From Terriglobia bacterium (lineage in GTDB: Bacteria > Acidobacteriota > Terriglobia > 20CM-2-55-15): 64,000 nt of DNA. Location: contig CBDAOY010000008.1 of NCBI GenBank assembly GCA_965198225.1, positions 96,001 through 160,000 of the forward strand, given 5' to 3'. This document shows positions 8,114 through 35,225 of the stretch, in pieces. The notes beneath the pieces were generated by a model. That model had not been told where the DNA came from and ran no database searches. It saw only the letters and a program-made list of their open reading frames with translations. A program made the translations under genes and the position numbers. The stretch's first letter is position 1; each line of letters opens with the position of its first letter.

Positions 8114-8144
8114 TTCAACTCAGGCTGTCCATCCGGAGGCGGTG

Positions 8145-9071: not shown

Positions 9072-9346
9072 CGGCAACACTCCCTTTGCCGGCCCTCTCT
9101 AGAGCCCCTAAATAGAGTAAGTTGAACAAGTTGTCAGACTTGTTTGACCCGATTATAGTCATTCGTCATTCCCAGCGCAAGTCCGGATTCCCACACGACC
9201 TTTGTATGCTTAGAGTTAGGTCAAAACTGGTCCCGTCGACTACTTTTCTTTTCCGTCCTAAAGCTCCCAATCCGCTCCTGACGGTGTGCTATAGTCACCG
9301 TTGGATTTACAGAGATACGACCACCCGTTACGGGTTTTCGGTCTTG

Positions 9347-11697: not shown

Positions 11698-11713
11698 ACC
11701 GGCTGCTCGCGCC

Positions 11714-13053: not shown

Positions 13054-13090
13054 GCGTCGTACGAACGGTTCTGCTTACGCAACCGCTCAA

Positions 13091-13827
13091 GCAAAACTCC
13101 GGGATCGAGTGTAGGTGCGCTCTATGAGCGCACAGAGTTTCAGTTCGAAGAATGTGCGGTCATAGACCGCCCCTACACCGGCGTGTGGAGTTGGGCTCCT
13201 CCAAAACCCACTCCCCTCACGCAAAACTCCGGGATCGAGTGTAGGTGCGCTCTATGAGCGCACAGAGTTTCGGTTCGAAGAATGTGCGGTCATAGACCGC
13301 CCCTACACCGGCGTGTGGAGTTGGGCTCCTCCAAGACCCACTCCCCTCACGCAAAACTCCGGGATCGAGTGTAGGTGCGCTCTATGAGCGCACAGAGTTT
13401 CGGTTCGAAGAATGTGCGGTCATAGACCGCCCCTACACCGGCGTGTGGAGTTGGGCTCCTCCAAGATCCACTCCCCTCAAGCGAACTCCCGGATCGAGTG
13501 TAGGTGCGCTCTATGAGCGCACAGAGTTTCAGTTCGAAGAATGTGCGGTCATAGACCGCCCCTACACCGCCGTGTGGAGTTGGGCTCGTCCAAAATCCAC
13601 TCCCCTCACGCAAAACTCCGGGATCGAGTGTAGGTGCGCTCTATGAGCGCACAGAGTTTCGGTTCGAAGAATGTGCGGTCATAGACCGCCCCTACACCGC
13701 CGTGTGGAGTTGGGCTCCTCCAAAACCCACTCCCCTCAAGCGAACTCCAGGATCGAGTGTAGGTGGGCTCTATGAGCGCACAGAGTTTGGGTTCGAAGAA
13801 TGTGCGGTCATAGACCGCCCCTACACC
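13091..13827. repeat. tandem array of ~130-bp units, each holding a REP doublet (BIME-2-like)
   Basis: Units start near 13091, 13221, 13351, 13481, 13610 and 13740 and are near-identical along their whole length. Confidence 0.93.
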
Positions 13828-13967
13828 ACGTTCTTCAATTGTTTCCCCCCATTCCGACGCGTAACATAACTCCAGACTCCTTAACGATTACTCGGGTGCT
13901 GGGGCGGCGACTGTTTTGCCCTGGCAGGGCCAAAGAGACTCCAATAAAGTGAGTTCTCATTGACAGT

Positions 13968-15797
13968 ATGCTGCGCGCGCCACTGATTCTTGTTCTTCTG
14001 GCTGCCCTTGCGGGCGGGGACGATCCTTACTGTCCCGCCTATCCCAAACCGGTGCGTCAAGCCCACCTGGCCCGGCTTGAAATGGAGCGTTCGGCCCAGG
14101 CTCTGTCGACCAACCTCGTCGAGCCGGTCGTGAACTGGTCCGGCCCCAGGAACATACCGACCCTGGCCGGAAACAACTTCATCGACGACTACATCTTCGC
14201 CAAGATGGAGAGCGGAGGAGTCGAACCTGCCCCGCTGACGACCGATACCGACATCCTCCGGCGCATGTCTCTCGACCTGACGGGCCGGATTCCCGCGATC
14301 GAACAGGTGCAAAGCTTCGTCGCCGACCCGGACCCGGCCAAGCGCGCCAAGTTGATCGAACAGCTGATCAACTCCCCGGCTTTCGTCGACTACTGGACAG
14401 CGTTCTTTGCGAATCATTTCGAGGTCACGAGCGAGTACTACTATTTCATCGGTATTCCGGGTCGCAACCTCTTCTACAACTACCTGCGTGATTTCGTCGC
14501 CAGCGATCGCTCTTACAGGGATGTCGTCAACGAGTTGATTTCATCCAGCGGGGACTCGCTGGAGCGGGGAGAGCTGAACTTCCTGGTGCGAGGTGTCCAG
14601 CAGGGGGATCCCATCCAGGACACCTGGGATGTCGTGACCGATCGGATCACGACGAAGTTCCTCGGCGTCCAGACGGAGTGCGTGTCCTGTCACCACGGAT
14701 CGAATCACCTGGAAGAGATCAATCTCTACCTGGCGGAGCGGACCCGGGAGGAATTCTGGGGCCTCTCCGCATTCCTGTCGCGGACCAATTTCATTCAACT
14801 GGCCGCCGACGCGTTCGATGAGCAGTCGCACTTTCTGATCAACGACCGTTCAAGGGGCGCCTACACCGGTTCGGTTGACCCAAACAATCCGGGTCCTCGC
14901 CCTTTCCGAACCAGTACCGCCGTGACGCCGGCCTACATGTTCGGCGGTGAGGCGCTCGGGTCGGGAGCCTGGAGGTCGGAGCTGGCCCGCATGGTTGTTT
15001 CGGATCGGCAATTCGCCCGTGCGACGGTGAATTACCTGTGGGCCCATTTCTTCGGGTCCGGGATCGTGGACCCCGTCGACGGTTGGGATCTGTCGCGCAT
15101 CGATCCGGCCAACCCGCCGCCGGCACCCTGGGCGTTGCAGCCGACGCACCCGAGGCTGATCGAAGCCCTGGCTGACGAGTTCATCCGCAGTGACTACAGC
15201 ATCCGGAGCGTGGTTCGACTGATCGTCCAGTCGCGGACGTACCAGCTGTCGAGCAGCTACCCCGGCGACTGGCGGCCGGAATACGAACTCTATTTCGGCA
15301 AGCACCAACCCCGCCGCCTGAAGCCCGAGGAAATCTACGACGCCCTCACTACGGCGACGATGACCGAGACCCCGATGTACGTCGAAGGATTCGATAACCC
15401 GCTGTATTACGCGATGCAGTTGCCCGACCCCAGCGAGCCTCGGAGTAACTACCAGATCATGGACTTCCTGGACAAGCTAGGCCGGGGGGATTGGTGGCAG
15501 AGGCCCCCGAGCCAAGATTCCACCGTCCTTCAGGCATTGCTGCTGATGAACGACTACACCCTCAACTCCCGGGCGTTCGCCAACCGCGGCGTTTTGACGA
15601 ATGTCACCCGTGTGGCGCAGGCCGGCCTGGGCGATCGGGAGGCGATCGATCGACTGTTTCTGTCCACGCTGGGCCGATGGTCCACGGACGAGGAATTCGA
15701 GATTCTGCTCAGTACAAAGACTGCCAACTATGAGCGATGGCTCGCGGACTGCCAGTGGGCCCTGCTGAACAAGCTCTATTTTATTTTCAACTACTGA
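13968..15797 (+). CDS. DUF1549/DUF1553 (PSCyt/PSD1-type) exported protein with CxxCH
   Basis: NFIDDYI, LRRMSLDLTGRIP, FLGVQTECVSCHH, FARATVNYLWAHFFGSGIV, PTHPRL, SRTYQLSS. Confidence 0.88.
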   Translation: MLRAPLILVLLAALAGGDDPYCPAYPKPVRQAHLARLEMERSAQALSTNLVEPVVNWSGPRNIPTLAGNNFIDDYIFAKMESGGVEPAPLTTDTDILRRMSLDLTGRIPAIEQVQSFVADPDPAKRAKLIEQLINSPAFVDYWTAFFANHFEVTSEYYYFIGIPGRNLFYNYLRDFVASDRSYRDVVNELISSSGDSLERGELNFLVRGVQQGDPIQDTWDVVTDRITTKFLGVQTECVSCHHGSNHLEEINLYLAERTREEFWGLSAFLSRTNFIQLAADAFDEQSHFLINDRSRGAYTGSVDPNNPGPRPFRTSTAVTPAYMFGGEALGSGAWRSELARMVVSDRQFARATVNYLWAHFFGSGIVDPVDGWDLSRIDPANPPPAPWALQPTHPRLIEALADEFIRSDYSIRSVVRLIVQSRTYQLSSSYPGDWRPEYELYFGKHQPRRLKPEEIYDALTTATMTETPMYVEGFDNPLYYAMQLPDPSEPRSNYQIMDFLDKLGRGDWWQRPPSQDSTVLQALLLMNDYTLNSRAFANRGVLTNVTRVAQAGLGDREAIDRLFLSTLGRWSTDEEFEILLSTKTANYERWLADCQWALLNKLYFIFNY

Positions 15798-15838
15798 TCG
15801 GAGATCAGTGGTTGAAGTAGTCGGTAGTCAGTAAAGAG

Positions 15839-17179
15839 ATGAAAGACTGTACCAGCTGCAACAAGATGACGCGTCGTGAGTGGATGAAGCAGGCCGCTTC
15901 GTGGGCGGCTTTCACGGCGCTGGCCCGGCGGGGCGATGCCCAGGTTGTCACCGGCAATGCCCAGGTCCGCGGGACGGCTCGCTCCTGCATTCTCGTCTAC
16001 CTGAACGGTGCCCCGTCCCAGCTGGACACGTTCGACGTCAAAGACAACTCCTGGAATCCCGCCGACATCGACATCCAGCAGCACGGCGATATCGCGCTGT
16101 CGAACACCCTGTTCCCCAAGTTCTCCTCGCTCACCGATGATCTGTGCATCCTGCGCTCGGTCCGAAGCTGGGAAGCCATTCATGAGCGCGGTGTCTTCTA
16201 CATGCAGACCGCCCATCCGGCGAACCCAGCGTTCCTGGTCGAAACGCCCCACATGGGAGCGATCATCGCGACGGAGTTGGGCGGTGCCGGCCCGATGCCG
16301 CCGTTTCTCTCGCTGAATCAGCAAGGGACCGTCCAGGGTTCGACGTTTCTCGGCGGGTCCGTGGCGCCCCTGGCCGCCCCCACCGAAGGGGACGGGCTTT
16401 CGGTAATCCGGCACGACTATTTCGGCGAGGACAGCGAGGCCCGCTTTGCCGAGCGCTCCAGCCTGCTGGACCGGCTTGACGCGCGACTTCGCAATGCCCC
16501 GTTTTCGCAAGCGATGGCCGATCACGCGGCGCACTACGAATCGGCGAAGAGGATGATGTTCGACGAGTCGATCGCCTCGGTGTTCCGGCTTTCCGAGGAG
16601 GAGAACGCGCGCTACGGCGACACGTCGCTCGGGAGAGCTGCCCGAGTCGCGCGAAACGCCATTCGCGCGAAGAACGGAACGGTGTTCGCCGCCCTGACAC
16701 ACTCGGGTTGGGACACGCACCAGAGGATGTTCGACCGCAACAACGACCCGAACATGTACACCCTGTGCAACGAACTGGACAGCGCTATCGGCTCGCTTGT
16801 GGAGGACCTCAAGGCGTCTGGCGATTTCGATCAGACCCTTATCGTCATGCTCGGGGAATTCGGTCGCACACCGGGAGCGCTGAACCTTCAGGGCGGTCGC
16901 GACCATCACAGGGACGCGATGAGCGTTGTCATGATGGGCGGAGGCATCGCCGGGGGGCGCGTCATCGGTGCGACCGATCCCAATGGAGCCGCCATGACGG
17001 AGCCGGGCTGGAGCAGAGGGCGTGCCATCGTGATGGAGGATCTCGCTGCAACGATCTATTCAGCGCTCGGTATCGACTGGACCAAGAGCCTCCTGGACAC
17101 GCCCTCGGGCCGGAAGTTCGAATACGTGCCCAGTGGTCTGAGCGGCGTCTACACGTCGGTCGAGGAAGTATTCAGATGA
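15839..17179 (+). CDS. DUF1501-family protein with Tat signal
   Basis: TRREWM twin-arginine, GAPSQLDTFD, GWDTH, GEFGRTP, GRDH. Confidence 0.9.
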   Translation: MKDCTSCNKMTRREWMKQAASWAAFTALARRGDAQVVTGNAQVRGTARSCILVYLNGAPSQLDTFDVKDNSWNPADIDIQQHGDIALSNTLFPKFSSLTDDLCILRSVRSWEAIHERGVFYMQTAHPANPAFLVETPHMGAIIATELGGAGPMPPFLSLNQQGTVQGSTFLGGSVAPLAAPTEGDGLSVIRHDYFGEDSEARFAERSSLLDRLDARLRNAPFSQAMADHAAHYESAKRMMFDESIASVFRLSEEENARYGDTSLGRAARVARNAIRAKNGTVFAALTHSGWDTHQRMFDRNNDPNMYTLCNELDSAIGSLVEDLKASGDFDQTLIVMLGEFGRTPGALNLQGGRDHHRDAMSVVMMGGGIAGGRVIGATDPNGAAMTEPGWSRGRAIVMEDLAATIYSALGIDWTKSLLDTPSGRKFEYVPSGLSGVYTSVEEVFR

Positions 17180-19977: not shown

Positions 19978-20175
19978 GTGTACGTGCGGTCTAAGACCGC
20001 ACGTTTCCTCTGGCCGCGACGATGTGCGCTCATAGAGCGCCCCTACACCCGGGCGAGAGACAAGTGTACGCGCGGTCTACGACCGCACGTTTCTACTGGC
20101 CGCGACGATGTGAGCTCATAGAGCGCCCCTACACCCTGGCGATAGATGAAGTGTAGGAATGGTCTATGACCGCAC
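19978..20175. repeat. cluster of two degenerate REP doublets plus one single REP
   Basis: gtgtacgtgcggtctaagaccgcac...gagcgcccctacac, repeated, then gtgtaggaatggtctatgaccgcac. Confidence 0.85.
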
Positions 20176-21109: not shown

Positions 21110-21360
21110 CGTGGGTTCTCCTTCGTGGTAGCTGACGTTCAGCGCGCCATTGTACATCTCCAAGCGCCTTTCGCTGGAAGCTGACGCCCGTGGGAACCTG
21201 GTGCCGGACGCGTGGTTCGCAGCTCTGGCTGTCGAGTCCGGCTGCGAACGGATCACCCTGGATCGTGATTACGCCAGGTTCGAGGGACTGAAATGGAGCC
21301 TTCCACGACTCGCCTGACTCGTTGCGTCCGCACCCACGGAGCTAACATCCGGAACTAAGG

Positions 21361-22182
21361 TCAAGAATTTGCAGCCTTGTAGCGGCCGTGTTGAGGACCA
21401 AAATACTCGCCGAGATCGGTACCCATATGCGACGCGTCGGAGAACATCCACGCATTAACGTCTGCACCAACCCGCATCGCCGCGTGCTCCCGAACCGCGT
21501 GCGTCTTCGTCCAGTCCCGATGGAGCGTTGCGCGCTTCCACTCGGCACGCGACTCCGAGGCGTGCCACATCATCGAGTTGTACAGCAGGCAATCTCCCGG
21601 TTCGAGAACGACGTTCATCGCACCAGGCATCCCCGCGCACATGTTTGGGTCGACAGCAGCGTAGACATCGAAGGGCGCTACCAACCCCTCCACACCGAGC
21701 GCCTCGAACTTGGCAGCGTGAGCGGCCTCGTCTGCGCGGTTGACCCGGATATGACTGCCGGGCACGATCCAGAGGCTGCGATCCGGATACAGCGCGCAGT
21801 TGCTGAAGGCGAACATCTGCGGATCCTGGATCATATCCGCCATGACGAAATAGGGTTCCTCGAAGTCACGATGCCAGCGGCATGCTGTATGGCCATCCGA
21901 ACCCAGGAAGGCAGACATCCCGCCGCAGGCAAGATCGCTGGTCCCCAGTACCTCCGCTGCCGCGTCGTTCAGCTTGGCCACGTTGAGGTAGTCGATCAGG
22001 CAGCGGTGGAAAGTCTTTGGACTCAAAAGCGCCTGTTGGCGTGTGTAGTGGTCTGTCTCGCCCCGGTCCCGCAGCGTGTAGAGATATTCAAAGTGCTCGC
22101 GAAGGCGCCGAATCAAATCGGCGTCGATCGCGTCGCGCACGATGACCCATCCATCCCTCACGAACTGGTCACGACTATGCAT
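21361..22182 (-). CDS. phytanoyl-CoA dioxygenase (PhyH)-family Fe(II)/2OG oxygenase
   Basis: RDGWVIVRDA start, WHRD (HxD), LWIVPGSH, PGDCLLY...WH...R. Confidence 0.85.
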   Translation of the reverse strand: MHSRDQFVRDGWVIVRDAIDADLIRRLREHFEYLYTLRDRGETDHYTRQQALLSPKTFHRCLIDYLNVAKLNDAAAEVLGTSDLACGGMSAFLGSDGHTACRWHRDFEEPYFVMADMIQDPQMFAFSNCALYPDRSLWIVPGSHIRVNRADEAAHAAKFEALGVEGLVAPFDVYAAVDPNMCAGMPGAMNVVLEPGDCLLYNSMMWHASESRAEWKRATLHRDWTKTHAVREHAAMRVGADVNAWMFSDASHMGTDLGEYFGPQHGRYKAANS

Positions 22183-22210
22183 CCGTGCAACACTACAGTA
22201 CCCTCAGCGC
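22183..22210. promoter_or_regulatory. putative bidirectional promoter for two leaderless transcripts
   Basis: 28-bp spacer with no RBS; TACCCT 6 nt before ATG 22211 (+) and TAGTGT 7 nt before ATG 22182 (-). Confidence 0.4.
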
Positions 22211-22867
22211 ATGTCGCAACAGCCTGAAATCGACCGTTCGGTTGAGCCCACACTGATCGAATTCGGGGCCCAAGGTGGTGTCGTGGTGTTCGACGGGTTC
22301 TTTGCCAACCCCCACGAATTACGCGCCCTTGCGCTCGAGCAGCGATTCGAGCCGGTCGCTGAAACGCTGTTCCCCGGGGAGCGCGTCGAGGTGCCCTTCG
22401 ACCATCGTCATATCATCGAGCATCTCAGCGCGTTCGTGGATTGGGACATTTCCACATTTACTTCCGAATGTCATTTCAACATCTTCACGCTCAAGGACGC
22501 GGACCGGTCGCCTTCTCAACGTGTGCCGCACGTCGACACGATCAAACGGCGGGTTCTCGTGGCGCTGACCTACCTCAACCTGCCCGATCAGTGCCGGGGA
22601 GGCACAAGCTTTTTCAGACATCTTCCCACCGGCCTGGAACGCGTCGCGCCAACCTGCCCCGAGACACTGATCGCCGACCTATACCATCCGCCTGAACCGG
22701 CGGAGTGGGAGCGCGTCTGCACCATCGAAATGCGTTTCAATCGCGTCGTGGTTTACCGCGGCAATCTCTTTCATTCCGCGACGGTCTCAGACGAGGATTT
22801 CGGAGCTGCACCTGAGGCACGCAGGCTAACCATGAACCTGGTTATGGAGTCTGAAATAACCCTGTGA
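22211..22867 (+). CDS. DUF6445-like Fe(II)/2OG oxygenase-fold protein
   Basis: VVFDGFFANP, PHVD (HxD), YLN...GGTSFFRH, FNRVVVYRGNLFHS, RRLT. Confidence 0.75.
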   Translation: MSQQPEIDRSVEPTLIEFGAQGGVVVFDGFFANPHELRALALEQRFEPVAETLFPGERVEVPFDHRHIIEHLSAFVDWDISTFTSECHFNIFTLKDADRSPSQRVPHVDTIKRRVLVALTYLNLPDQCRGGTSFFRHLPTGLERVAPTCPETLIADLYHPPEPAEWERVCTIEMRFNRVVVYRGNLFHSATVSDEDFGAAPEARRLTMNLVMESEITL

Positions 22868-22980
22868 TCCGAACCATGTTGTCGACCGGAGGCCAGAGTT
22901 GACGGTGCCGTGTCATCTGTGTGATAACTGAGCCCGTCAGAATTTCCGCAGCCTATCAGTTCACAATCGGGGAGAGAATC

Positions 22981-23316
22981 ATGTCAGAAAAAGCGCTTGG
23001 CGAGTTCATCAATAAGATCAACGGTTCGGCGGATCTCTCGAAGCAGGTTGAAGGTCTCATCTCCGGCCAGCGCGATTGGGCCGGATTTATAGCCCTCGGC
23101 AGGGACAATGGCTTTGAGTTCACCCATGACGAGCTACAGGCCAACCTGGACGCGATCCGTAGCTTGGGCGGCGGGGCAGATGGTGAGCTGAGCCAGGCAG
23201 ACCTCGAAATGGCTGCTGGTGGCGCGGGGATAAGCGGGCCCGGAAAGATCTCGGGTATCGGTGGTGTTGACATCCCGACGACCGAATCCGCGATAAAGTG
23301 GGCGCGCTGCTGGTAA
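22981..23316 (+). CDS. Nif11-family leader RiPP precursor peptide (111 aa; 81-aa leader, 30-aa core)
   Basis: RBS ggggag; MSEKALGEFINK...GFEFTHDEL...ELSQADLEMAAGG double-Gly motif; core AGISGPGKISGIGGVDIPTTESAIKWARCW. Confidence 0.9.
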   Translation: MSEKALGEFINKINGSADLSKQVEGLISGQRDWAGFIALGRDNGFEFTHDELQANLDAIRSLGGGADGELSQADLEMAAGGAGISGPGKISGIGGVDIPTTESAIKWARCW

Positions 23317-23335
23317 CGCGCGCCGCGCGTCACAC

Positions 23336-24919
23336 GTGAAGATTCTGCTCGTCTACCCCCCGATGCTCAATGTGCACGGGGCGATAGCGCCACCTCTCGG
23401 TATCCTCAACATTGCCGCGGTTCTCGAGAAGAACGGTTACACCGTCCAGGTCGCGGATTTCGTTTTCGAGCTGGCGAACGGCACGACTGAGGCGGGGCCC
23501 AACGTCTACGACGACGTTGCCCGAAGGATCATCGCCTTTGAAGCCGATGTCATTGGCTTCTCGACTCTCTGTGCCTCCTACCCGGGCGCCATCCAGCTTT
23601 CAGACCGTGTGAAGGCGGCCCGACCGAACACCAAGATAGTGTTCGGCGGCATGAACGCTGCGTTTGTCGCCGTAGAGACCCTCGAAGCGTTCGAATCTAT
23701 CGACGTGGTGTGCCGCGGCGAGGGTGAACTCGCCTTTCTGGACATTGTGCAGGCTCTCGAAGGCGACAAGCCGATCTCCCGGGTGCCGGGAATCGCATAC
23801 CGCGACGGATCTCGCGTGGAGGTCACCCCCGACCGGCCGCAGATCCGCAATCTCGACGATCTCCCACTGCCCGCGTATCATCTTGCGCCTTCGTTCGCGG
23901 ACTACGCAGAGTGCAATGTGGGTTTCGGACGCACCGAGGCCCTGGTCGAAGCTGGGCGAGGTTGTTCGTTCAATTGCATGTTCTGCTCGATCTGCGGTTT
24001 CTACGAGGAAAAGGCCCGCCACTACTCTCCCGAGCGCGTCGTCGAGGAAATCGAACTGGTGACCGGCCTCGGCGCGGACTCGATCTACTTTACCTACGAT
24101 ATCCTCACCGAAGACGCGCCCTATGTTCGCCGAATCTGCGAGCTGCTGAAGGAACGCGATATACGCGTGCCGTGGGTGTCGCGGTCACGTCTCGATCTCG
24201 TCGACTATGATCTCATCGACACGATGGTGGAGGCCGGTTGCCGTGAGATGTTCTTTGGCATGGAGTCCGGATCTAAGAAGATCCTCGCCTCATTGCACGG
24301 CAAGAACATCGGGGAAGAGCACAAGATCGACTATGCACGCGAAAACGGCGTGCAGGTTTCGCTCAGTTTCACCATCGGCTATCTCCAGGAGAACCAGGAC
24401 GAAGTCAACGCAACTTTGATGTGCTGCGTCGAATACGCGGCGCGTGGTGTGTTCTGCACGCCCCTGCTTATCTCCGTTCTGCCGGGCACCAAGCTGTATC
24501 ACGCCTATAAGGACCGCCTGGTACAGACGATCACGCCCAAGTTCTCATTCGGCATCGAGTACGATGACGGCCGCAAGTTGGCGAGCGACCAAGCCATGAT
24601 TGCCCGCTACCCACACATATTTTCGTCCTTCTACAATATCCAGCCGAGCCACCTTGACCTGACTCTGCTCGGCCACATCAACTACTACGGGGGCGACGTG
24701 ATGCTGCGTCACAACGCGTTGATGAGAGACATCGTGGCAAAGACCGGGCGGACACCCTACGAGCTCTTTGGTGACTTCTTTCGGTGGGCGGAGCATCAGG
24801 GCATGGCATTGGATCGTCTACAGTTCACGCCGTTACGAGTCGCCGACACCTTCGTTCAGTTCGCAGATCAGGGCGCCGTCGACAACCTTGAAGGCGTAAG
24901 CAGCAGGAGAGCACCGTGA
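23336..24919 (+). CDS. cobalamin-dependent (class B) radical SAM protein, probable methyltransferase
   Basis: B12-binding N-terminus (LVYPP...PPLGILNIAAVL, GEGE), GRGCSFNCMFC, GMESGS. Confidence 0.9.
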   Translation: MKILLVYPPMLNVHGAIAPPLGILNIAAVLEKNGYTVQVADFVFELANGTTEAGPNVYDDVARRIIAFEADVIGFSTLCASYPGAIQLSDRVKAARPNTKIVFGGMNAAFVAVETLEAFESIDVVCRGEGELAFLDIVQALEGDKPISRVPGIAYRDGSRVEVTPDRPQIRNLDDLPLPAYHLAPSFADYAECNVGFGRTEALVEAGRGCSFNCMFCSICGFYEEKARHYSPERVVEEIELVTGLGADSIYFTYDILTEDAPYVRRICELLKERDIRVPWVSRSRLDLVDYDLIDTMVEAGCREMFFGMESGSKKILASLHGKNIGEEHKIDYARENGVQVSLSFTIGYLQENQDEVNATLMCCVEYAARGVFCTPLLISVLPGTKLYHAYKDRLVQTITPKFSFGIEYDDGRKLASDQAMIARYPHIFSSFYNIQPSHLDLTLLGHINYYGGDVMLRHNALMRDIVAKTGRTPYELFGDFFRWAEHQGMALDRLQFTPLRVADTFVQFADQGAVDNLEGVSSRRAP

Positions 24920-26313
24920 CTGAGTTGACTAAGTATTTCAAGGGCAAGAATATGCGGCGCATCGAGAGAATCGTGGAGCATCGCTTCGACGATGCGACCG
25001 TATTGCTCAATCCTTACAACCTGGAGACGATCGAAGTGCCCGAGGAGGCGGTTGCGACCCTCAACTCGCTTGCCGCCGCCCGGACCGAGGAAGAGTTTCG
25101 AGCAGCCAACAATGGAAATGCAGTGGACGAAGAACTGTTCCAGAAGGGCTTCATTGTTCCTGATTCCTATGAGGAACGGGCGATTACCAAGGCTATGGGC
25201 GACGCTCTCGCTCGGCCCACAGAAGTATCGACTTTGTTTGTAGTGCCCACAATGGGCTGCAATCTGAACTGCAGCTATTGCTTCGTCTACCAGAACGGGC
25301 GCGATTTCGAAAAACAAACCCTGGCCTGGCCCGTCTATGAGCGCGGCGTCGAAGCGTATCTTCGCTCCTTCGACAAGACCCAACCCGGCCTCAACAAGAT
25401 CGTCTTCTACGGCGGCGAGCCCCTGATGCGCCCGGCCTTCGTGAAGGACGTCATTGAAGACATCCAGGGCAAGATCGAGGAGGGACGGTTCGGCAAGCGC
25501 GATGTGATTTTTGGCATGACGACGAACGGCACCCAGATCAACGACGAAGTCGCCACGTGGATGGCTGAGAACCAGGTGCACACTTTCGTGTCACTCGACG
25601 GTGACTTCACCGCCAACAGCCGCCGGTTGACCCTCGCCAACGCCAGCGCCAGTTTCGACGCCGCCGTCAACGGCATCAGACTTCTGGAAGCACACGGATT
25701 GAATCCGAGCATCTCCGTGGTCATCGGCAAACACAACATCGACCGCTTCGAAAGCGGCCTCGATTGGCTCGCCGACAATTTCAGAACGCGGACGATCAGC
25801 ATTTGCTTCGTCAACAACAAGCCCGACGGCTCGGAGCGCGACGAGGGCCTACCGCTCGATGCGAGTCAAATTGAAGCGATCTACCGTACCGCCTATGCGA
25901 AAGGGTTCGCCGAGAAGAGCGTGGAATCCTACAGGCAGACCATCGAGCATCGGAGCTTGTCCGCGCCACATTGCGGCGCCGTCGGCGGACACATGATTTT
26001 GCGACCGGACGGCAAGACCTCGCTCTGCCCTTTGCTGATCGACGGGGACGAAACCGCCGTCGAGGTCGAAGAAGAGACGATCGTATCCGAACAGGCGATC
26101 TGGCTGGAGTGGACCCAGCGCCGCCCGCTTAACCCCAGGATGAAGAAGTGCAACGAGAGTTGCGAATACCTGACGGTTTGCACGGGCGGATGTTCCTACG
26201 AGTCACCCGCACGCTACGGGAGCATCTGGGAGGTCAACCCAGAGGAATGTGACAAGCAGCAGGGCGCGATCAACGTCGCCCTCGAACACATCGTCGTCGA
26301 CCGACGGACCTAG
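24916..26313 (+). CDS. radical SAM/SPASM peptide maturase with probable N-terminal RRE
   Basis: CNLNCSYC, YGGEPL, TTNGT, VSLDG; SPASM CGA...DGKTSLCP...CNESCEYLTVCTGGC...C; GTGA overlap with the upstream gene. Confidence 0.9.
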   Translation: MTELTKYFKGKNMRRIERIVEHRFDDATVLLNPYNLETIEVPEEAVATLNSLAAARTEEEFRAANNGNAVDEELFQKGFIVPDSYEERAITKAMGDALARPTEVSTLFVVPTMGCNLNCSYCFVYQNGRDFEKQTLAWPVYERGVEAYLRSFDKTQPGLNKIVFYGGEPLMRPAFVKDVIEDIQGKIEEGRFGKRDVIFGMTTNGTQINDEVATWMAENQVHTFVSLDGDFTANSRRLTLANASASFDAAVNGIRLLEAHGLNPSISVVIGKHNIDRFESGLDWLADNFRTRTISICFVNNKPDGSERDEGLPLDASQIEAIYRTAYAKGFAEKSVESYRQTIEHRSLSAPHCGAVGGHMILRPDGKTSLCPLLIDGDETAVEVEEETIVSEQAIWLEWTQRRPLNPRMKKCNESCEYLTVCTGGCSYESPARYGSIWEVNPEECDKQQGAINVALEHIVVDRRT

Positions 26314-26351
26314 CAGCCACGGGCTGCTAAACGCTGAAACCGACCCGTTCG

Positions 26352-28250
26352 ATGAGCCAACCCACATTGCAGCTGGTGTCGATGCCGTGGGCCTCTCCGG
26401 CTTCGTCTTCCATCCAGATCGGGTGTCTCAAGGCTTACGCGGACCAGGTGTTCGCCGGCCGGTTGGATATTACCGCTCACTCCGGATTCTTCAGCATCCT
26501 CGATGTGCTCTTTGAATCCCCGTTTGAAGGCTATGACGCGCTTTCGGGATACCAGGAATATCCCTACTTTCTGCTCTATGCTCGACGCTACCTGGACGCC
26601 GAAGTCGACATTGACGATCTCATCGACCGGCTCAACACGTCTCAACACACGTCCGGGGTCCTCACACCGGAGCTACTGGACCGCCTCGAAACGGCGACGA
26701 TTGCTGATCTCGACTCTTCGATCGTACCGCGTCTCACCGGTCGCGATGTCATTGGTTTCACCCTGAACTTTTTCCAGGTATACGCGTCGCTCTTTGCAGC
26801 CCGACATCTGCAGGACGTGTGCGGCGCAGATGGGCCGCTCTTTCTTCTCGGTGGTTCGAGCGTGAACTTCCCGGAAGTCGCTCAAGTGGTCCGGCGCACC
26901 GGCATCCCCGGCCTCGGCGTCATTGGAGAGGGCGAGAGAAAGCTCGAGTTGATTGTCGGTTCATGGCTGGAGGACTCCGCTACCGTCCAGATTGCCAGCG
27001 ACATTCCCGGTGTCTACGAGCTCGGCGACAAAGCGGCAGGCCTGTTCGAGCGCAACGTCGCCAACTACAAGACGCAGTTCGCAGCGATGGACGAATTACC
27101 GATCCCTGATTTCGACGAATACTTCGATCGGGTACGGAAAGCCTGTTCTGCGGAAGTGGTCGAGAAGACCATCGCTTTTCCAATGGAAGGTAGCCGGGGT
27201 TGCTTTGCACATTGCGACTTCTGTGGTGACAATGTCATCTGGAACGGCTTCCGCAGTCGAGCGTCGAAGCGCGTCTTTGAACAGGCGATGACGCTCACCG
27301 AACGGTACGGTCACCATTCTTCACATTTCGTCGACAACGTTTGCGACAGCTGGGCCGAGTCATTTGCCGACGACTTGATTCGACGTGGTCAGACCCATGC
27401 GACACGCATGGAGATGCGCGTTCATCATCCGGAACGATTCTGGACCAAGCTGGCCCTCGCCGGTGTCTGGGCCGTACAAACAGGCATCGAAGCGCTATCC
27501 GAGCCGCTCCTCCAGGGTATGAACAAGGGGACGACGGTGATGCAGAACTTGATGGCTCACAAGTACCTGTGCGAACTGGGCGTGCAATCGCGCGCGAACC
27601 TGATCATCAATCACCCCAAATCGACACTCGCAGACATCGACGAAACGCGGCGTGTCATCGAACACATCCGGCACATGGGGCGCCTTCGCCTTTCCGACTT
27701 CTCGTTGACCATCGGAAGCCCACTCTACGATGCGCTGAAGCCGGAGGAGCGCCGCAACCTGAAGCAATGGACGTGGGCCACTCTCCCCGAGCACCTCGCA
27801 CCCCACTTTGTGTCTCTTTACGTTCGAATGCCAGACGGCCATGAGCTCGATCCGGAGGTCCGCCGCGGCTGGTATGGATTCGGTCAATGGTATGAAGATC
27901 TGGTTGCGACCTCCGATGTAGATCCCTTCGAGCTCTCCGCGACGCAGATCACGAATACGGCGACGCACATCCGGGGATCGAATATCGACCAGCGAATCGA
28001 AGGGAACGAGCACCACGTCTACGCCCTGGCACACCGGCCACGCACAGTCGAGGCCCTTGCCGCCAAGGCGTGTCTGCCGCCGGGCGGTGTCGCAGTGATC
28101 GTTGCTCAGTTCGTCACCGATCGACTGATGATCCGGGTCGGTGACGAGTACTTGTCTCTGGCATTGCGGCCTCGCTCGGAACTGGTCGCTCGCTATGAGG
28201 GGAAGCAGGCACAGCCGGCGACAGGATCGGTTTCGCGAGTTCTTTCGTGA
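26352..28250 (+). CDS. RiPP-maturation cobalamin-dependent radical SAM C-methyltransferase-like protein (TIGR03975-like)
   Basis: N-terminal LVSMPWA..SIQIGCLKAY, GEGE, PIPDFDEYF, EGSRGCFAHCDFC, VDN, QTGIEALS..LLQGMNKG. Confidence 0.85.
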   Translation: MSQPTLQLVSMPWASPASSSIQIGCLKAYADQVFAGRLDITAHSGFFSILDVLFESPFEGYDALSGYQEYPYFLLYARRYLDAEVDIDDLIDRLNTSQHTSGVLTPELLDRLETATIADLDSSIVPRLTGRDVIGFTLNFFQVYASLFAARHLQDVCGADGPLFLLGGSSVNFPEVAQVVRRTGIPGLGVIGEGERKLELIVGSWLEDSATVQIASDIPGVYELGDKAAGLFERNVANYKTQFAAMDELPIPDFDEYFDRVRKACSAEVVEKTIAFPMEGSRGCFAHCDFCGDNVIWNGFRSRASKRVFEQAMTLTERYGHHSSHFVDNVCDSWAESFADDLIRRGQTHATRMEMRVHHPERFWTKLALAGVWAVQTGIEALSEPLLQGMNKGTTVMQNLMAHKYLCELGVQSRANLIINHPKSTLADIDETRRVIEHIRHMGRLRLSDFSLTIGSPLYDALKPEERRNLKQWTWATLPEHLAPHFVSLYVRMPDGHELDPEVRRGWYGFGQWYEDLVATSDVDPFELSATQITNTATHIRGSNIDQRIEGNEHHVYALAHRPRTVEALAAKACLPPGGVAVIVAQFVTDRLMIRVGDEYLSLALRPRSELVARYEGKQAQPATGSVSRVLS

Positions 28251-29095
28251 CGGTGGGGATCGTTCGCCGGAAGCTGCCGGTCATCCTCAATAAGCACCCG
28301 CTCGCCTTCGTCGACGTGAACGACGTCCGGAAGCACTTCGTTTACAGTCTTGAAGTCAATGCGGTCGATCACTGCAACTTGCGTTGCAGACAGTGCACTC
28401 ACATGTCACCGGCTTACCGGGAGGCGTTTCGCACCCCCGAGGAACTGTACCGTGTCCTGAGTCGGACGGCCGAAGCCGTGTACGCCAACACGCTCTCGGT
28501 TCTGGGTGGAGAACCGCTGCTGCACCCCAACCTGACGGAAGTACTCGACGCGTGCCGCGCGTCGGGGATCAGCCGCCACATTTACGTAACGACCAACGGC
28601 GTCCTGGCCAGGGAGCAGCCGAAATCGTTGTGGAAGCACATGGACTTTGTGGTCATCAGCGTCCATGGCGGCGGTCTGTCGCTAAAAGAGGCGCAAGGGC
28701 TCGCGGATGAATTATCCCCTTACGTGATCGCACGCGTCGTCAAAGACGCGTTTCGGCAGATTTTTCTGCCGCACGCGTTAAGCGACAACGACACGGACTA
28801 CGTGTGGCGCACATGCGCGCAGGCCCATGAAATGCGCTGCCACTTTGTCCACGCCGGCAAGTACTACCGGTGCCCGCCACAACGCTTTATTCACGAACGA
28901 TTGGCAGATGCGACCGGAGTGGAGATCCAGGATGATGGTCTCGACCTGTCAGGTCCGAACCTCTTTGACCGCCTCACCCGATACCTCCAGCGCACCGACG
29001 CTCTTGAAGCGTGTCGCTACTGCCTGGGCAGCAGCGGCGGGCGTATCCTTCGGCACGACACGAGAAAAGGCCAGCCGTGGAGGCTGTTCGAGTGA
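28247..29095 (+). CDS. short radical SAM protein with twitch-like C-terminal cysteines
   Basis: CNLRCRQC, GGEPLLHP, TTNG; C-terminal C...C...GKYYRC...ACRYC; GTGA overlap. Confidence 0.85.
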   Translation: MTVGIVRRKLPVILNKHPLAFVDVNDVRKHFVYSLEVNAVDHCNLRCRQCTHMSPAYREAFRTPEELYRVLSRTAEAVYANTLSVLGGEPLLHPNLTEVLDACRASGISRHIYVTTNGVLAREQPKSLWKHMDFVVISVHGGGLSLKEAQGLADELSPYVIARVVKDAFRQIFLPHALSDNDTDYVWRTCAQAHEMRCHFVHAGKYYRCPPQRFIHERLADATGVEIQDDGLDLSGPNLFDRLTRYLQRTDALEACRYCLGSSGGRILRHDTRKGQPWRLFE

Positions 29096-30309
29096 TCCGG
29101 ACGGTCGGCGTTCTAACCCATGAGCGCCCTGATGTTCTCGAGCGGTGCCTCGACTCCCTGCAGGACAACCTGAAACGCCACGGGCGCGATGCGGTAGAGA
29201 TTCTTGTCGTAGACGACTCCAAGCCACCCAACGCACGTCTGAATCGGAGCCTGGTTGAGAGCCGGGAATGTGCTCGATACTTCGGAGCAGATGACAAGCA
29301 ACGGATGATCGAGCATATCGGAGCAGAGACCGGCGGAGCCCGCGAGCTGTTGGAGTTCGCGTTCCTTCCAGCCGGAGATGATCTCTTCTGTGCGGGCGCC
29401 AATCGCAACGTACTGCTGGCCCTCGGTTCCGGCCAGCGCTTCATTACCGCCGACGACGACAGCCTGGCCGAGTCGCGGCGCAGGGGTGATCCGGAGCCAA
29501 CCCGCTATCTGGACGCGCCGGAGCGCCGACCCTATGCGGAGGGACGGGATCTGTTCGAATCCGTTGAAGCGCTTGATGCAGCGTATCCCGAGGTTGATGT
29601 CGATCTCGTCGGCGCCCACGAAGAGTGGTTGGGCTCGAACGGTGTCCGCGTCACCCAATCACGAATCGCGGGTGCCCCCGACATGCCGGGTGACGCCCTC
29701 TTACAGATGTATGTCCAGTCCAGGAACCCCGCGTTGCTCGAGGGCATCGTTCCCTTCGTGGAAATAGACAAGGCTCGGGGCGCCGAGATCGTTACAGGAG
29801 GCGACGTTTGCTACCATGTGTGCGGCCTCGACCACACAGAGATCCTCTGGCCCAACCTGCCTTGCTACGAGGATGAGGATCTGATTTTCGCGCGCATACA
29901 CAGAGAACTGGCGGCACCGTTCATCACGATGAAGCTCCCCGTCAATCACTGGCACGACAAGGGAAACTTCGGCGACCCGGTCGCAGACGCCGTCCGTTAT
30001 TTTCCTGCTCGTTTTTGTCGCGATGTTGCCGATGCCATCGCGGCCCCATCGATCGAGGAGATTTGCTCGCGGGTGCAGGCACTCAAAGGGCCACGGGACC
30101 GTTTTGACGAGGCGCGTGAGCTTTTCGGTGGTTTCGTGGCAGCGGCACCAAACTTCTCCGTACAACTCGCTCCGTTTCTGCAACGCGACTCATACGAGGT
30201 CTACGCAAACCAGACTTTCACGGAGGTCCTCGCAGTCTACAATCGCTGGGCCGACGTGCTGCTTGTCTGGGATTCCTGGATGCAAGCGATGAGGAGTTTT
30301 CGTCGGTGA
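29092..30309 (+). CDS. GT-A-fold (family 2-like) glycosyltransferase-like protein
   Basis: GTG 29092 overlaps the upstream stop; VLTHERPDVLERCLDSL, ILVVDDS, GANRN, TADDD (DxD), EDEDL. Confidence 0.7.
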   Translation: MIRTVGVLTHERPDVLERCLDSLQDNLKRHGRDAVEILVVDDSKPPNARLNRSLVESRECARYFGADDKQRMIEHIGAETGGARELLEFAFLPAGDDLFCAGANRNVLLALGSGQRFITADDDSLAESRRRGDPEPTRYLDAPERRPYAEGRDLFESVEALDAAYPEVDVDLVGAHEEWLGSNGVRVTQSRIAGAPDMPGDALLQMYVQSRNPALLEGIVPFVEIDKARGAEIVTGGDVCYHVCGLDHTEILWPNLPCYEDEDLIFARIHRELAAPFITMKLPVNHWHDKGNFGDPVADAVRYFPARFCRDVADAIAAPSIEEICSRVQALKGPRDRFDEARELFGGFVAAAPNFSVQLAPFLQRDSYEVYANQTFTEVLAVYNRWADVLLVWDSWMQAMRSFRR

Positions 30310-30369
30310 GACGCAGGTCTGGCGGAAAGGAATCCGAGCGCATTCCGCCACCGAACTCGAAAGCGAAGA

Positions 30370-30399
30370 TTGACTTCAGGAGTTTAGGGTCATGATAAT
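30370..30399 (+). promoter_or_regulatory. sigma70-like promoter of tRNA-Gly
   Basis: TTGACT (30370-30375), 18-nt spacer, GATAAT (30394-30399), 19 nt upstream of the tRNA. Confidence 0.5.
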
Positions 30400-30418
30400 G
30401 TTGACGGATCCGAACTAA

Positions 30419-30490
<72 letters not shown>

Positions 30491-30496
30491 CTTTAG

Positions 30497-30548: not shown

Positions 30549-31692
30549 TTAGTTCACAAACGCCGATTCGAGCATCTCCGCCGCTTCAAGCCGACGTTCC
30601 AGCGAAGACTGGTTGTAGACCTCCATGTGTACCCCCAATCCGTGGCCTTGTTGATCGCTGATGACCTTAGGATCGGCTCCCAGGTTATTCATCAAGGTTG
30701 CGTGGGTTCTGCGCATTACGTGAAAATCCACCCACCCTAGACCTACCTCCCTGAGTGCTGGACGAATGTAGCGACGCATCGCGTTGTTTTTTGCTAGGGG
30801 CGTTCCTACAGCTTCGGAAGCGAATAGCCACCCATTTGGACCAGTGTCGGGAGAGCCTGCCAACCAGGAATCCATATCACGAACGACCATAGTTGAAAGT
30901 GCTACCAGACGCTTCGACCTCCGTGTTTTAGGTGTTCCGAGTTTGCCGCGATAAAGGCGCTCTTGCACGTCCACTGCATTCTCAGCGACCCGCCCGCGAC
31001 GCAATGCAAAGATCTCGCCGGGACGCATCCCGCCCAGAATCGCTAGTTTGACGATCAGACGTTCCCTAAGCGGTTGGATGGCGGCGGCGATCTTTACGTC
31101 CGCCAGGGTCATGCACCGACGCTCCGGCTTCGAGCATTCCGCTGGCGTAAATAACGACCTTGCGGCGTTCCGATCCGTGACTCGTTCCTCCTGAGCCAAC
31201 CCGAGAATCTGTCGAAGGTCCCAGCGAAGATGATCTGTTGTGCTGAATGACAGGCCGGATCTCGAATCGAGAAAGTCCTGAAGTTCGTCCCTCGTGAGTG
31301 TCCGTATCTGGCGATCACCGAGGCCGGCCACTATCTCTCGATCCACCCTGTCCCTGTTCGTCATGTAAGTCGATGCTTTCCATTTGCGCCGGTAGAAGGG
31401 AAGGTACACCTCTTCGATGAACTCCCTGACGGTACAATCTGGCGACACATCCACACGGGTATTGATCGGTTTCAAAATCGATGAACTCCCTGACGGTACA
31501 ATCTGGCCGGGTATTGATCGGTTTCAAAATGTCCGCTAGCTTGTCCCGTGCTTCCGACTTCGTGATCTTGTTCCCGCCCTTGCACGCACCGAGCAGTTTC
31601 GTCTTGTGGTTGCCTTCTTCTCTGTACTTACCGACCCAGTAGCGTCCGTCGCCGGACTTCGTTACCGAGCCTTTTTGATACCGTTTCCGCAT
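30549..31692 (-). pseudogene. tyrosine recombinase/integrase frameshifted by an internal tandem duplication
   Basis: N-terminus MRKRYQKGS in one frame; catalytic R (GMRPGE), K (PKT), HxxR (HVMRRT), GH and Y in another; duplicated segments 31414-31477 and 31478-31529. Confidence 0.85.
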
Positions 31693-31866
31693 GTGCACCA
31701 CCTCGAGGCCACGGTCCATGGTGATAGCGGCGTCGCAACTTACTACACAACCGGGACAACAAGGTACCCGGATGGGACAATCCTGCAGGGCATCTTTCGG
31801 GCTTCAATAGTGGCGATAAGGCAGGGAAACCAGTGGAAGTGGGCACACCTCCATGCCCAGCTCTAA
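31693..31866 (+). pseudogene. 3' fragment of an NTF2/SnoaL-like (DUF4440-type) gene
   Basis: HLEATVHGDSGVATYY...RASIVAIRQGNQWKWAHLH with no start of its own. Confidence 0.55.
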
Positions 31867-32591: not shown

Positions 32592-35225
32592 CTATGGCAC
32601 CGGCACCCGTTCCTTCAGTTCTTCAAACCAGTTGAGGACTATGTTGATTTGGGGTTCATCCGTTTCCGGCTGTTCCGCTGGAAAGACCATCAGGAATTGT
32701 TTGCCATCAGGCGTGATGTCGTAGTTTCTATAAGTGCCAACTACGAGAAACCCTTGTATTGGAAGTGGCTGCTCATTTCCAAATCCAAAAGCACCATCGG
32801 TTGAAACGGCCACGCCCGTTATTCCTACCCTCCGCCTGCTCGCGCCAGCGGCCCGGTAGAACAGCTCGCTTCCGTCCGGCGACCACAGTGGGAATAAACC
32901 TATATCCTGCGTAATCTGATGCCTTGCCGTTGTCGCGGGAAACGGCTGTACGAAAACCTGCCGAGATTGCCCCCCTTCACTCGAATAGTAGGCAAGCCAC
33001 TTCCCATCCGGTGAGAATAAGGAACCAAGCTCGATGGATTGTGGTAGGTCATAAAAGACTTCTGGGGTGGACCCACCATCAAGCGATAGCGTCCATATAC
33101 CGTAATCTCCGTCACGTTGTACGGCGAATGAAAGAACGTTCCCATCGGGGGACCATGATTCCGGTAAATGGCTGGTTCCTTCTTCGGCGGTAGTCAGCCG
33201 TTCGGCGCCCCCGCTTCCATCTGCTGGTTGCCACCAAATGCTCGTGCTTCCATCTCTGTCTGAAGCGAACGTAATACGTTTACTATCAGGCGTCCATATG
33301 GGTCGGCTGTTGTTGCCTTCTTGCGTTAGCTGCCGAATCGACGTGTCACCAGACACATCGTAAACCCAGATGTCGTTTTGCCCATCGTCTTCAAGTGTTT
33401 GGACCGCAAGCTGCATCCCACCCGGCGACAGGCGGGGACTCAAATACGGGGCGGGCCGCACGTTGAGGCGTTCCACCTCGCCGCTACGGTCTACGAGGGC
33501 AAGAATACGGTCGGTGGTGCCCAAGACAGAACCCACAACATAAACAAGCGAGCCACGGTCGGAAAAACCATAATTCGCAGTGCCCGTGACAGCGGTCCGC
33601 CGAACACCTTCAACAATTGGAACTGGTCCGCCCAACACTTCAAGACTGCCCACGTCAAACGGGGCAGCAAGAAGTACGTCTGCTAACGCATAAACGAGGT
33701 GGCTGGTCGCCACATAACGAGCATCGCTGCCACCTTCGATCAGCGTCCTACGCTTGCCCGTGTCCAGCGACTGCACGACAATGTGGGCCTCGTCCCACCG
33801 GGTTCCACCGCTCGTGGTTGCCAGCGTAAACAGCACCGATTCCCCATCTGGCAACATCTGGGGACCCTGAACTTGCTCCGGCGGCTCGGTTTCAACCAGC
33901 AATTCTGGCGTGCCTCCGTTGGCGGAAACACGCGTGATGCCTTCGGGCTGGCCAAACAGAATGGTGTCATCTTCGCCCCAACTCGGACCGAAGGTAGGAC
34001 CAGAGATATCGCACAGGACGACTGGCGCTCCGCCGCTGATAGAAATCCTCTTCAACTGTTGGTCGGTAACAGACCCGTAACCAACCCATTGTCCGTCCGG
34101 AGAGAAGAACGGCTCGGCTGGGTCGTCATCGGTTCCCGGAATGGGATGCGCCTCCAACTCACCCATCGAGCGGGAATAGAGTTGTCCGTTTGCGACATAA
34201 ACGAATTGACTACCGTCGGGCGACACGGCGAGAAGAGAAGCGGCTGTGCGTGTGAATCGTTGGTCCTCGGGCAGGTCGTAATCAAAGCGGGTGATGATAC
34301 GGGGTTCGGATGGCTTCACATTCCAGACTGCTACACCAACGATGATCGCGCTGATAACGGCGGTAGCTGCGATCCATCGGAGCATCGGTCGTGGCGGTGC
34401 CTGAATAACATCGGCGCCGGGCTGCACAAACAGGCCATCTGGGTCTGACAGCAACTGCTCCACCTCGACCCGCACATCCCCGACAGCCTGCCAGCGGTTC
34501 TTGGGCTCCTTTTCCAGACACCTACGTAACAATTCCTGAATCCGGGGATTGATATTGACCGGCAGGAGCGTGAAGTCGGCGTCCTTTGCAACCGCGGCAG
34601 CGATCATGTCCGTTACCGTCGGTCCTGCCCATGTCTGGCGTCCCGTCAGCATCTCGTACAGGACACACCCAAAGGCCCATACATCGGCCCTCTTATCGAC
34701 TTCCTGCCCTCGGGCCTACTCAGGGCTCATGTACGCCGCTGTTCCGAGGATCATTCCCTGCTGAGTTGCCGCCATGCTCAAGGTCGGTGACTGCGAAAGA
34801 TTCACATCCGACCCATCCCCCGCAAACGCCTTCGCCAGACCAAAATCGAGAACCTTCACCTTGCCATCCGGCGTGACCTTGATGTTTGCGGGCTTCAGAT
34901 CACGATGGATGACACCTTTTTCATGCGCAGCTTCGAGGGCCTCGGCGATCTGGAGGGCGAGCTTGAGGGACTCCTCTACCGTGATAGCACCCCTCTTCAA
35001 CCGATCCGCCAACGTGTCGCCTTCCACGAGTTCAAGGACGAGGAAGCGTGTGCCGTTATCTTCTTCCAGCCCGTAGATGGCGGCGATGTTCGGATGGTTC
35101 AGTGATGCCAGCAGCTTCGCTTCACGCCCGAGCTTGGTGTCCCGCGCACGCCAGACTTCTCCCATTCCGCCGTTGCCGAGCGGGGAGAGGATCTCGTAGC
35201 TGCCGAGTTGGGTGCCGGGGTTCAT
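32592..35225 (-). pseudogene. Ser/Thr kinase-TM-beta-propeller gene K1, inactivated
   Basis: In-frame TAG at 34716-34718 (MSPE*ARG) and loss of 23 codons including VAIK relative to the paralogue at 39542; PD40-like SPDG repeats; C-terminus NWFEELKERVPVP. Confidence 0.88.

Follow-up and report, generated by a model that had tools for sequence, protein, structure and literature searches.

Which molecule is made by an operon that joins the precursor of a peptide made on the ribosome and modified after translation (RiPP) to four radical S-adenosylmethionine (rSAM) enzymes and a glycosyltransferase, and do all of these enzymes work on the peptide? The question is raised by an eight-gene locus of a Terriglobia bacterium, contained in a stretch of 64,000 nucleotides (contig CBDAOY010000008.1, positions 96,001 to 160,000; hereafter the window). 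The genes encode a PhyH-family oxygenase, a DUF6445 protein, a Nif11-leader precursor peptide and five enzymes that are called D to H here (Table 1). The original prediction had up to seven enzymes, the four rSAM enzymes and the two upstream oxygenases among them, acting on a single core of 30 amino acids (aa). Our analysis leaves little doubt that the locus is a RiPP cluster; its enzyme set is unusual and rare. The assignment of all four rSAM enzymes to the core is not supported by our data: one of them, G, is an enzyme of the SpeY/HygY family, overlaps as a gene with that of the glycosyltransferase H and stands in a context that has not been described for this family.

G shows a Radical_SAM match with the CX3CX2C motif (present in all four rSAM proteins of the cluster) at residue 43, has no NCBIfam assignment and has about 460 detectable relatives. 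A profile of the G family, compared with solved structures, hits 7wzv (“The structure of a Twitch Radical SAM Dehydrogenase SpeY”) at an E-value of 9.9e-92, and G alone aligns with the same entry over residues 33-279 (phmmer, 2.3e-39). The AlphaFold model of G (pLDDT 86.8) likewise matches 7wzv in Foldseek with an E-value of 1.3e-24, TM scores of 0.84/0.80 and an rmsd of 2.3 Å. In 28 aligned family members four cysteines beyond the rSAM motif are invariant (C190, C209, C256 and C259), and a fifth, C198, is found in at least 90 %; they are candidate ligands of an auxiliary cluster. Sequence and fold alike place G among the SpeY/HygY-type twitch rSAM enzymes. It is indeed the short rSAM enzyme of the original prediction, and the clear family assignment alters the interpretation.

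The characterised members of this family serve in aminoglycoside pathways (spectinomycin, hygromycin B), where they carry out the oxidation or epimerisation of sugar carbinols. The title of the SpeY entry, the title of the HygY paper and the sugar-type neighbours of G relatives all point to sugar carbinols as the substrate type, and by this analogy G is predicted to be a sugar carbinol epimerase or dehydrogenase. Relatives of G are often encoded beside sugar-type enzymes, among them GFO/IDH/MocA oxidoreductases, HAD proteins and aminotransferases. At one genome locus, in Streptomyces hygroscopicus subsp. hygroscopicus, the neighbours comprise two sugar aminotransferases and proteins resembling heptose-7-phosphate kinase, scyllo-inosose dehydrogenase and GalT; because this context fits an aminocyclitol-glycoside pathway, the G relative in this locus is very probably HygY. 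Cys198 of G aligns with a cysteine in the S. hygroscopicus homolog and with a serine in SpeY. We take this position to be that of the hydrogen-atom-donor cysteine that sets the epimerase apart from the dehydrogenase, and since G carries the cysteine we predict an epimerase.

The gene that follows G encodes H, a protein of 405 aa without any NCBIfam match. Its match to Glycos_transf_2 (PF00535) covers residues 5-47 only and, with 21.3 bits (2.8e-4), stays below the cut-off of 23.3. An exhaustive HMMER search returned 1,133 relatives at E <= 1e-3, only one of them at E <= 1e-30, and among 5.8 billion clustered proteins one close relative (90 %) was found. In 60 aligned relatives a DXD motif, D121-D122-D123, is invariant and further conserved positions run along the full length. 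The structure model from this alignment (pLDDT 76.7, pTM 0.83; about one third of the model is of low confidence) gave 38 PDB matches at E <= 1e-3 in Foldseek, and the entries shown all bear glycosyltransferase or glycan-synthase titles; MtdL is the best (1.8e-7), followed by PcManGT, AvpGT and TarP, with SunS at rank 40 (E 1e-3). The best TM scores are moderate (0.46/0.50). Model and fold search thus agree with the GT-A-fold protein originally predicted, and the predicted GT-A fold is sound; donor and acceptor are not assignable.

Three of ten scanned relatives of H are C-terminal domains directly behind a phosphopantetheine carrier domain in proteins of the polyketide synthase (PKS) or nonribosomal peptide synthetase (NRPS) type. 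The fusions have the domain orders KR-ACP-GT, HAD-ACP-GT and A-KR-PCP-GT (P0140, P0209, P0234; locus L006, 5178-8969), an architecture that, to our knowledge, has not been characterised. Because these relatives sit behind carrier domains, the architecture suggests that the H family glycosylates tethered substrates. Two loci with H relatives, L006 with an NRPS/PKS-fused form and L007 with a stand-alone form of 628 aa, were considered as RiPP loci and rejected.

G is tied to its neighbours on both sides. Start and stop codons overlap in a GTGA at F/G (28247-28250) and at G/H (29092-29095), and a third such junction lies at D/E (24916-24919); all three were read in the sequence. Genes D to H are co-oriented downstream of the precursor gene, from which D is separated by 20 nt. 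This layout, with a 111-aa precursor and five co-oriented genes, had been predicted and is borne out by open reading frames (ORFs), family scans and sequence. According to the ORF listing and the Pfam and NCBIfam scans, all eight genes lie at the positions in Table 1, each with a significant family match, and their reading frames are intact and full length compared with their families. A promoter and terminator scan gave no excess of sites over shuffled sequence. Because both characterised relatives of G act on sugars and G is coupled to the glycosyltransferase H, we consider it more likely that G edits an attached sugar than the core.

Table 1. Genes of the cluster and the adjoining tRNA gene (positions in the window).
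Feature	Position	Strand	Basis
PhyH-family Fe(II)/2-oxoglutarate oxygenase, 273 aa	21361..22182	-	Pfam PhyH
DUF6445 protein, 218 aa from ATG at 22211 (alternative start 22142)	22211..22867	+	Pfam DUF6445
Nif11-leader precursor peptide, 111 aa	22981..23316	+	TIGR03798, Pfam Nif11
D: B12-binding radical SAM enzyme, 527 aa	23336..24919	+	B12-binding + Radical_SAM
E: radical SAM/SPASM peptide maturase, 465 aa	24916..26313	+	Radical_SAM + 7-Cys SPASM pattern
F: TIGR03975-like radical SAM enzyme, 632 aa	26352..28250	+	TIGR03975 alignment
G: twitch radical SAM enzyme, SpeY/HygY family, 282 aa	28247..29095	+	sequence + fold match to SpeY
H: GT-A-fold glycosyltransferase, unnamed family, 405 aa	29092..30309	+	model + Foldseek, weak GT2
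tRNA-Gly(CCC)	30419..30491	+	ARAGORN

The RiPP character of the operon is supported by the precursor, which exceeds the cut-offs of both TIGR03798 (37.8 vs 32.3 bits) and Pfam Nif11 (PF07862; 27.3 vs 23.8 bits, 4.5e-6), as a Nif11-leader operon should. Its leader of 81 aa ends in ...ELSQADLEMAAGG (AAGG), a double-Gly-type motif that precedes the short core; cleavage at a GG motif is established for the Nif11-leader family. The core of 30 aa, AGISGPGKISGIGGVDIPTTESAIKWARCW, contains a single Cys (Cys29, next to the C-terminus), two Trp, no Tyr, many Ile/Val and five Ser/Thr carbinols. The tripeptide I-S-G occurs twice and, as a speculation, might be where an iterative modification would naturally take place. 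The genome encodes one C39 peptidase, on contig 5. The same contig encodes a second Nif11-leader precursor (659353-659613, minus strand; …AVAGG followed by an unrelated core of about 28 aa). Its neighbours are a 362-aa protein and an ABC transporter represented by its C-terminal part, and it may mark a second, different RiPP locus.

Three rSAM enzymes remain as candidates for work on the core. D combines a B12-binding domain (6.5e-21) with a Radical_SAM domain (6.9e-16, both Pfam), and among proteins of solved structure its sequence comes closest to TokK (4.3e-17). Its best NCBIfam match is ApyD (NF050148; 4.2e-67), where residues 17-440 align to profile positions 22-436 of 645; the score of 227 bits lies below the cut-off of 750. 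ApyD is a B12-dependent rSAM enzyme of aminopyruvatide biosynthesis that β-methylates Tyr on the peptide side chain (bioRxiv 10.1101/2023.10.30.564719). The present cluster differs from the ApyD system in that it has no MNIO, P450 or ApyS-type partner and in that its core is without Tyr. D is a probable peptide C-methyltransferase. The same function is probable for F, which aligns with the RiPP C-methyltransferase family TIGR03975 over residues 8-605 of 632 (5.2e-54; 183.8 bits against a cut-off of 281.85). Short ORFs with a GG leader stand beside F relatives in four of 15 inspected metagenome loci (L096, L105, L107, L111), which argues for a peptide-directed family; among the 35 best loci, 4 have a SPASM gene next to the F relative.

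E is a probable cross-link former. Its Radical_SAM match (6.8e-18) includes C115, C119 and C122 in CX3CX2C, and the C-terminal cysteines 353, 371, 412, 416, 422, 426 and 445 have the spacing of a SPASM domain, as expected of an rSAM/SPASM maturase. The best NCBIfam match is PapB (NF047865; 1e-33), with 117 bits below the cut-off of 340. In the PDB, the sequence most similar to E is that of 5wgg (3.4e-15), an entry titled “Radical SAM domain protein” which we take to be CteB. E thus resembles the PapB/CteB-type thioether synthases of ranthipeptides and sactipeptides in its rSAM motif and complete 7-Cys SPASM domain; the cluster differs from those systems by a core with a single Cys instead of a Cys-rich motif. 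Because their scores fall under the curated cut-offs, D, E and F are relatives of ApyD, PapB and TIGR03975, and not members. A permissive Pfam scan detected no RiPP recognition element (RRE)/PqqD domain in the N-terminus of E or the C-terminus of D.

The two oxygenase genes had been placed just upstream of the operon, which is where they are; of the two, only DUF6445 shares the operon orientation, and the PhyH gene is divergent from it on the minus strand. The PhyH protein is a clear Pfam match (PhyH, 1.7e-8; 35.4 bits, cut-off 22) with the HxD motif H104-R-D106, and found no match among solved structures. The DUF6445 protein (Pfam DUF6445, 1.6e-34) shows H107-V-D109 and a later His in ...NLFHS..., read from the translation. 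Its nearest Atlas clusters are DUF6445 clusters, two of them automatically named “2OG-Fe(II) oxygenase superfamily”, and PF13640 is found on 47 % of the members of one such cluster; both are leads only. Solved structures gave chance-level matches (E >= 0.14) and a permissive Pfam scan gave no 2-oxoglutarate (2OG) domain. The DUF6445 protein is a probable 2OG-Fe(II) oxygenase-like enzyme, judged by these motifs and leads. Action of the two proteins on the core, as originally claimed, is no longer secure: their place in the pathway is inferred from adjacency and from a shared stretch that is missing from congeners, and neither gene recurs in the related locus described below.

The best non-trivial relatives of F and G lie together on one metagenome contig of 30,404 bp, of which a 15.1-kb half was retrieved (locus L090; it ends inside a D-like gene). 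L090 holds a D gene (59 % identity) that is truncated where the contig stops. F (43 %), G (52 %) and H (36 %, E 2e-90) are arranged as they are in the window, and G and H are adjacent in both loci. An additional B12-binding rSAM enzyme of L090 exceeds the TIGR03975 cut-off (288.9 vs 281.85 bits). The other strand encodes a GT2 protein with MftF as best match, a GT4 protein, a PIG-L deacetylase, another rSAM enzyme and a hexapeptide acetyltransferase. The joint occurrence of D and F with G and H in two loci only 36-59 % identical, together with the expanded sugar machinery of L090, is the main argument for one pathway leading to a glycosylated peptide. L090 also contains an APH-fold kinase gene (11801-12856) near the HygY-like gene; its sole NCBIfam match, the hygromycin-B kinase APH(7'')-Ia, is weak (47 bits, cut-off 640) and may be coincidental.

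A wider synteny search for G used one genome per species, a G-family profile and then tblastn of all window proteins against 80 loci. Weak D/F-like matches were seen in only three of these loci (L011, L030, L055) and weak E-like matches in three others (L012, L024, L068). By their Pfam domains, L008, L011 and L012 have mixed, partly sugar-type contexts; two 102-aa ORFs in L012 look spurious and were set aside. L011, on a contig of an Acidobacteriota metagenome-assembled genome, contains an uncharacterised multi-rSAM cluster that is made up differently: a co-oriented run (1686-16380) of three B12-binding rSAM proteins, a URO-D-like protein, an alpha/beta hydrolase, a SpeY/HygY-like rSAM enzyme, an rSAM/SPASM enzyme, an NTP_transf_5 protein, a GFO/IDH/MocA oxidoreductase and an endonuclease/phosphatase-fold protein.

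Taken together, these data suggest a RiPP cluster for a C-methylated, cross-linked and glycosylated peptide, with G as the enzyme that edits the sugar, a composite mechanism to which we give an even chance; its chemical steps and their order are what we infer from the enzymes present. The precursor would be made ribosomally and its core tailored while still joined to the leader. D and F would C-methylate unactivated carbons of the core, and E would install a cross-link, most likely a thioether from Cys29 (the nearest relatives of E are thioether-forming enzymes, and Cys29 is the only Cys of the core), alternatively a C-C link at Trp. PhyH and DUF6445 may hydroxylate side chains and possibly create a glycosylation site. 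H would attach a sugar from the common nucleotide-sugar pool, and G would then epimerise (or oxidise) a carbinol carbon of the attached sugar, by analogy with HygY, whose substrate is a glycoside intermediate. The leader would finally be cut after GG by a protease encoded elsewhere, for which the C39 peptidase on contig 5 is the candidate. That the product is glycosylated at all is somewhat probable; that G acts on a sugar falls slightly short of an even chance.

Several observations weigh against this pathway. Identity between G and its two characterised relatives is only about 33-37 %, and there are also peptide-directed dehydrogenases and epimerases of the twitch/SPASM type. An H-like gene is present in none of the 80 genome loci with G relatives, and because of this the G-H pairing appears specific to the present lineage. 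The 15.1 kb of L090 that were read show no precursor gene, and E, PhyH and DUF6445 were not seen there either; of the co-conservation of precursor and enzymes, whose absence was to count against the original prediction, a part is thus found, for D, F, G and H. All three core-directed candidates score below the cut-offs of their best families. The cluster includes no protease, transporter, immunity or sugar-nucleotide gene. Also, CobD/CbiB (PF03186) and CobS (PF02654) were not found in the genome (completeness 97 %); D and F would therefore need imported corrinoid, and the organism probably depends on external corrinoids.

The strongest alternative, unlikely though it appears to us, is that all four rSAM enzymes act on the peptide core, with G epimerising a C-alpha position in the manner of EpeE or oxidising a Ser/Thr carbinol, and with H glycosylating the peptide independently of G. 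The position of G in a RiPP operon and its translational coupling to F would fit, as would the carbinols and the many Ile/Val of the core. In the fold search MoaA follows 7wzv as the next match (TM 0.40), and EpeE and BtrN-type enzymes are among the weaker ones (TM 0.48-0.49). SpeY is nevertheless the only strong relative of G, its E-value standing against one of about 1e-6 for EpeE, and both the frequent sugar-type neighbours of G relatives and the G-H adjacency in two loci speak against this alternative.

H was found in none of three same-genus genomes and none of 30 further genomes of the same family; its matches in 3 of 401 phylum genomes and in 2 of 60 relatives include its own genome, and the others cover the N-terminal half only (34-38 %). 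D has matches at E <= 1e-40 in 59 of the 401 genomes, the best of them outside its own genome reaching 34 % over most of D and 39 % over a short stretch. The stretch 21125-30417 has no listed DNA match in the three same-genus genomes. On its left a nitrilase gene matches these genomes at about 77 %, and at its right end the tRNA-Gly(CCC) gene matches congeners at up to 100 % (78 nt in G402) and is followed by an integrase gene. The block from PhyH to H behaves as a strain- or species-specific island, and the cluster of about 9 kb was, by this comparison, probably acquired horizontally. The window contains no attachment-site repeat of the tRNA 3' end, and no direct repeats of at least 18 nt bracket the cluster. 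The cluster could also be a silent or decaying acquisition that yields no product here, an improbable scenario which is compatible with the other alternatives. An integrase with an internal tandem duplication beside the tRNA, the absence of protease, exporter and immunity genes from the cluster and the late cobalamin genes not found in the genome would suit decay. The eight intact, full-length frames do not, nor do F, G and H homologs at 90-99 % identity on contigs of 63,548 and 47,359 bp in other assemblies, by which the operon is at least partly shared with close relatives. The cluster was found only in this genome, in these near-identical assemblies and on one distant metagenome contig, and is very rare.

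Some features of the flanks deserve mention. The tyrosine-recombinase gene by the tRNA (30549-31719, minus strand) contains exact repeats 52-64 nt apart (31414-31443 = 31478-31507; 31456-31478 = 31508-31530). Its N-terminal part lies in another frame (ORF 31315-31719), with the peptide ...KPINTR..PDCTVREFI... in both frames, and the gene looks disrupted by a short duplication. Between a 1088-aa ORF and the nitrilase gene stand two tandem copies of an 83-nt element (19978-20146, 92 % identical), of which an 18-nt piece recurs at 40656-40673; same-genus genomes hold scattered short matches to this region, which may be a REP-like dispersed repeat. A putative fragment of a kinase gene (169 aa) and, after it, a 686-aa ORF without a kinase domain of its own (32592-35225, minus strand) are members of a large paralog family, for which the two complete same-genus genomes show dozens of DNA matches of 65-84 %. 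From the translations our impression is that the fragment is a kinase and the 686-aa ORF beta-propeller-like.

In proteusins, too, a short core receives many modifications, among them C-methylation by B12-dependent rSAM enzymes and Fe/2OG hydroxylation, and the enzyme repertoire of polytheonamide resembles the Nif11-type leader, B12-binding rSAM and Fe/2OG set of the cluster. A proteusin of the polytheonamide type, and with it a known RiPP class, would account for the long Nif11/NHLP-type leader (as in polytheonamide and landornamide), the two B12-type rSAM enzymes and the Fe/2OG oxygenase genes; we regard this as quite improbable. The cluster departs from proteusins by its 7-Cys SPASM enzyme, its SpeY/HygY-type twitch enzyme and its GT-A glycosyltransferase. 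[quoted passage not shown] Measured by this description none of the four rSAM proteins appears to be of the PoyD type, E having a SPASM tail, G being SpeY-like and D and F being B12-type, and because a PoyD-type epimerase is missing we would not class the cluster as a proteusin. The Pfam and NCBIfam scans of the eight genes also showed no dehydratase or N-methyltransferase and, as originally predicted, no LanM or YcaO and no PoyD-type epimerase.

A chance mosaic, in which a RiPP unit (precursor, D, E, F) happens to neighbour a sugar or small-molecule unit (G, H) with no relation to it and two products are made, is very unlikely: the aminoglycoside substrates of G's characterised relatives, the GT4, PIG-L and APH-like genes of L090 that recall aminoglycoside-type pathways and the lack of a visible precursor there would favour it, and against it stand the 4-nt F/G and G/H overlaps within one co-oriented operon, the RiPP-type D and F that travel with G and H in so divergent a locus, and a window in which Pfam and NCBIfam scans reveal no scaffold-forming genes for a sugar-based metabolite.

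The preferred reading, a glycosylated peptide with an edited sugar, has partial parallels among known systems. G aligns with SpeY over nearly its full length, and the rSAM and four later cysteines are invariant across the SpeY/HygY family; it differs by its context in a RiPP operon instead of an aminoglycoside pathway and, by analogy, by a putative peptide-linked sugar as substrate. Glycocins (SunS) and mycofactocin (MftF) likewise have a GT-A/GT2-like enzyme in a RiPP cluster, from which H differs as a separate, unnamed family; an rSAM sugar-editing enzyme in these systems did not turn up in the literature searches and is not known to us. No characterised cluster with the same enzymes, and no description of the combination, was found in the full-text literature covered, with most subscription-journal papers and supplements outside that coverage, so that the claim of an undescribed set stands within this scope. 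The terms “DUF6445” and “7WZV” returned no papers in the same type of search.

It is possible, and no more than tentatively proposed, that the cluster and its L090 relative represent a new RiPP family in which the peptide is C-methylated, glycosylated by an unnamed GT-A family and carries a sugar epimerised by a HygY-type rSAM enzyme; the new RiPP class of the original prediction is likewise a candidate and no more. If true, rSAM sugar editing known from aminoglycosides has been recruited into peptide natural-product biosynthesis, and rSAM sugar tailoring and the multi-rSAM maturation of ribosomal peptides, so far separate, would be linked. The unnamed GT-A family of more than 1,100 detectable relatives would receive its first function. 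The rarity of the cluster makes it easily missed by family-based mining, and its eight genes would form a compact target for heterologous expression with clear mass-spectrometric read-outs.

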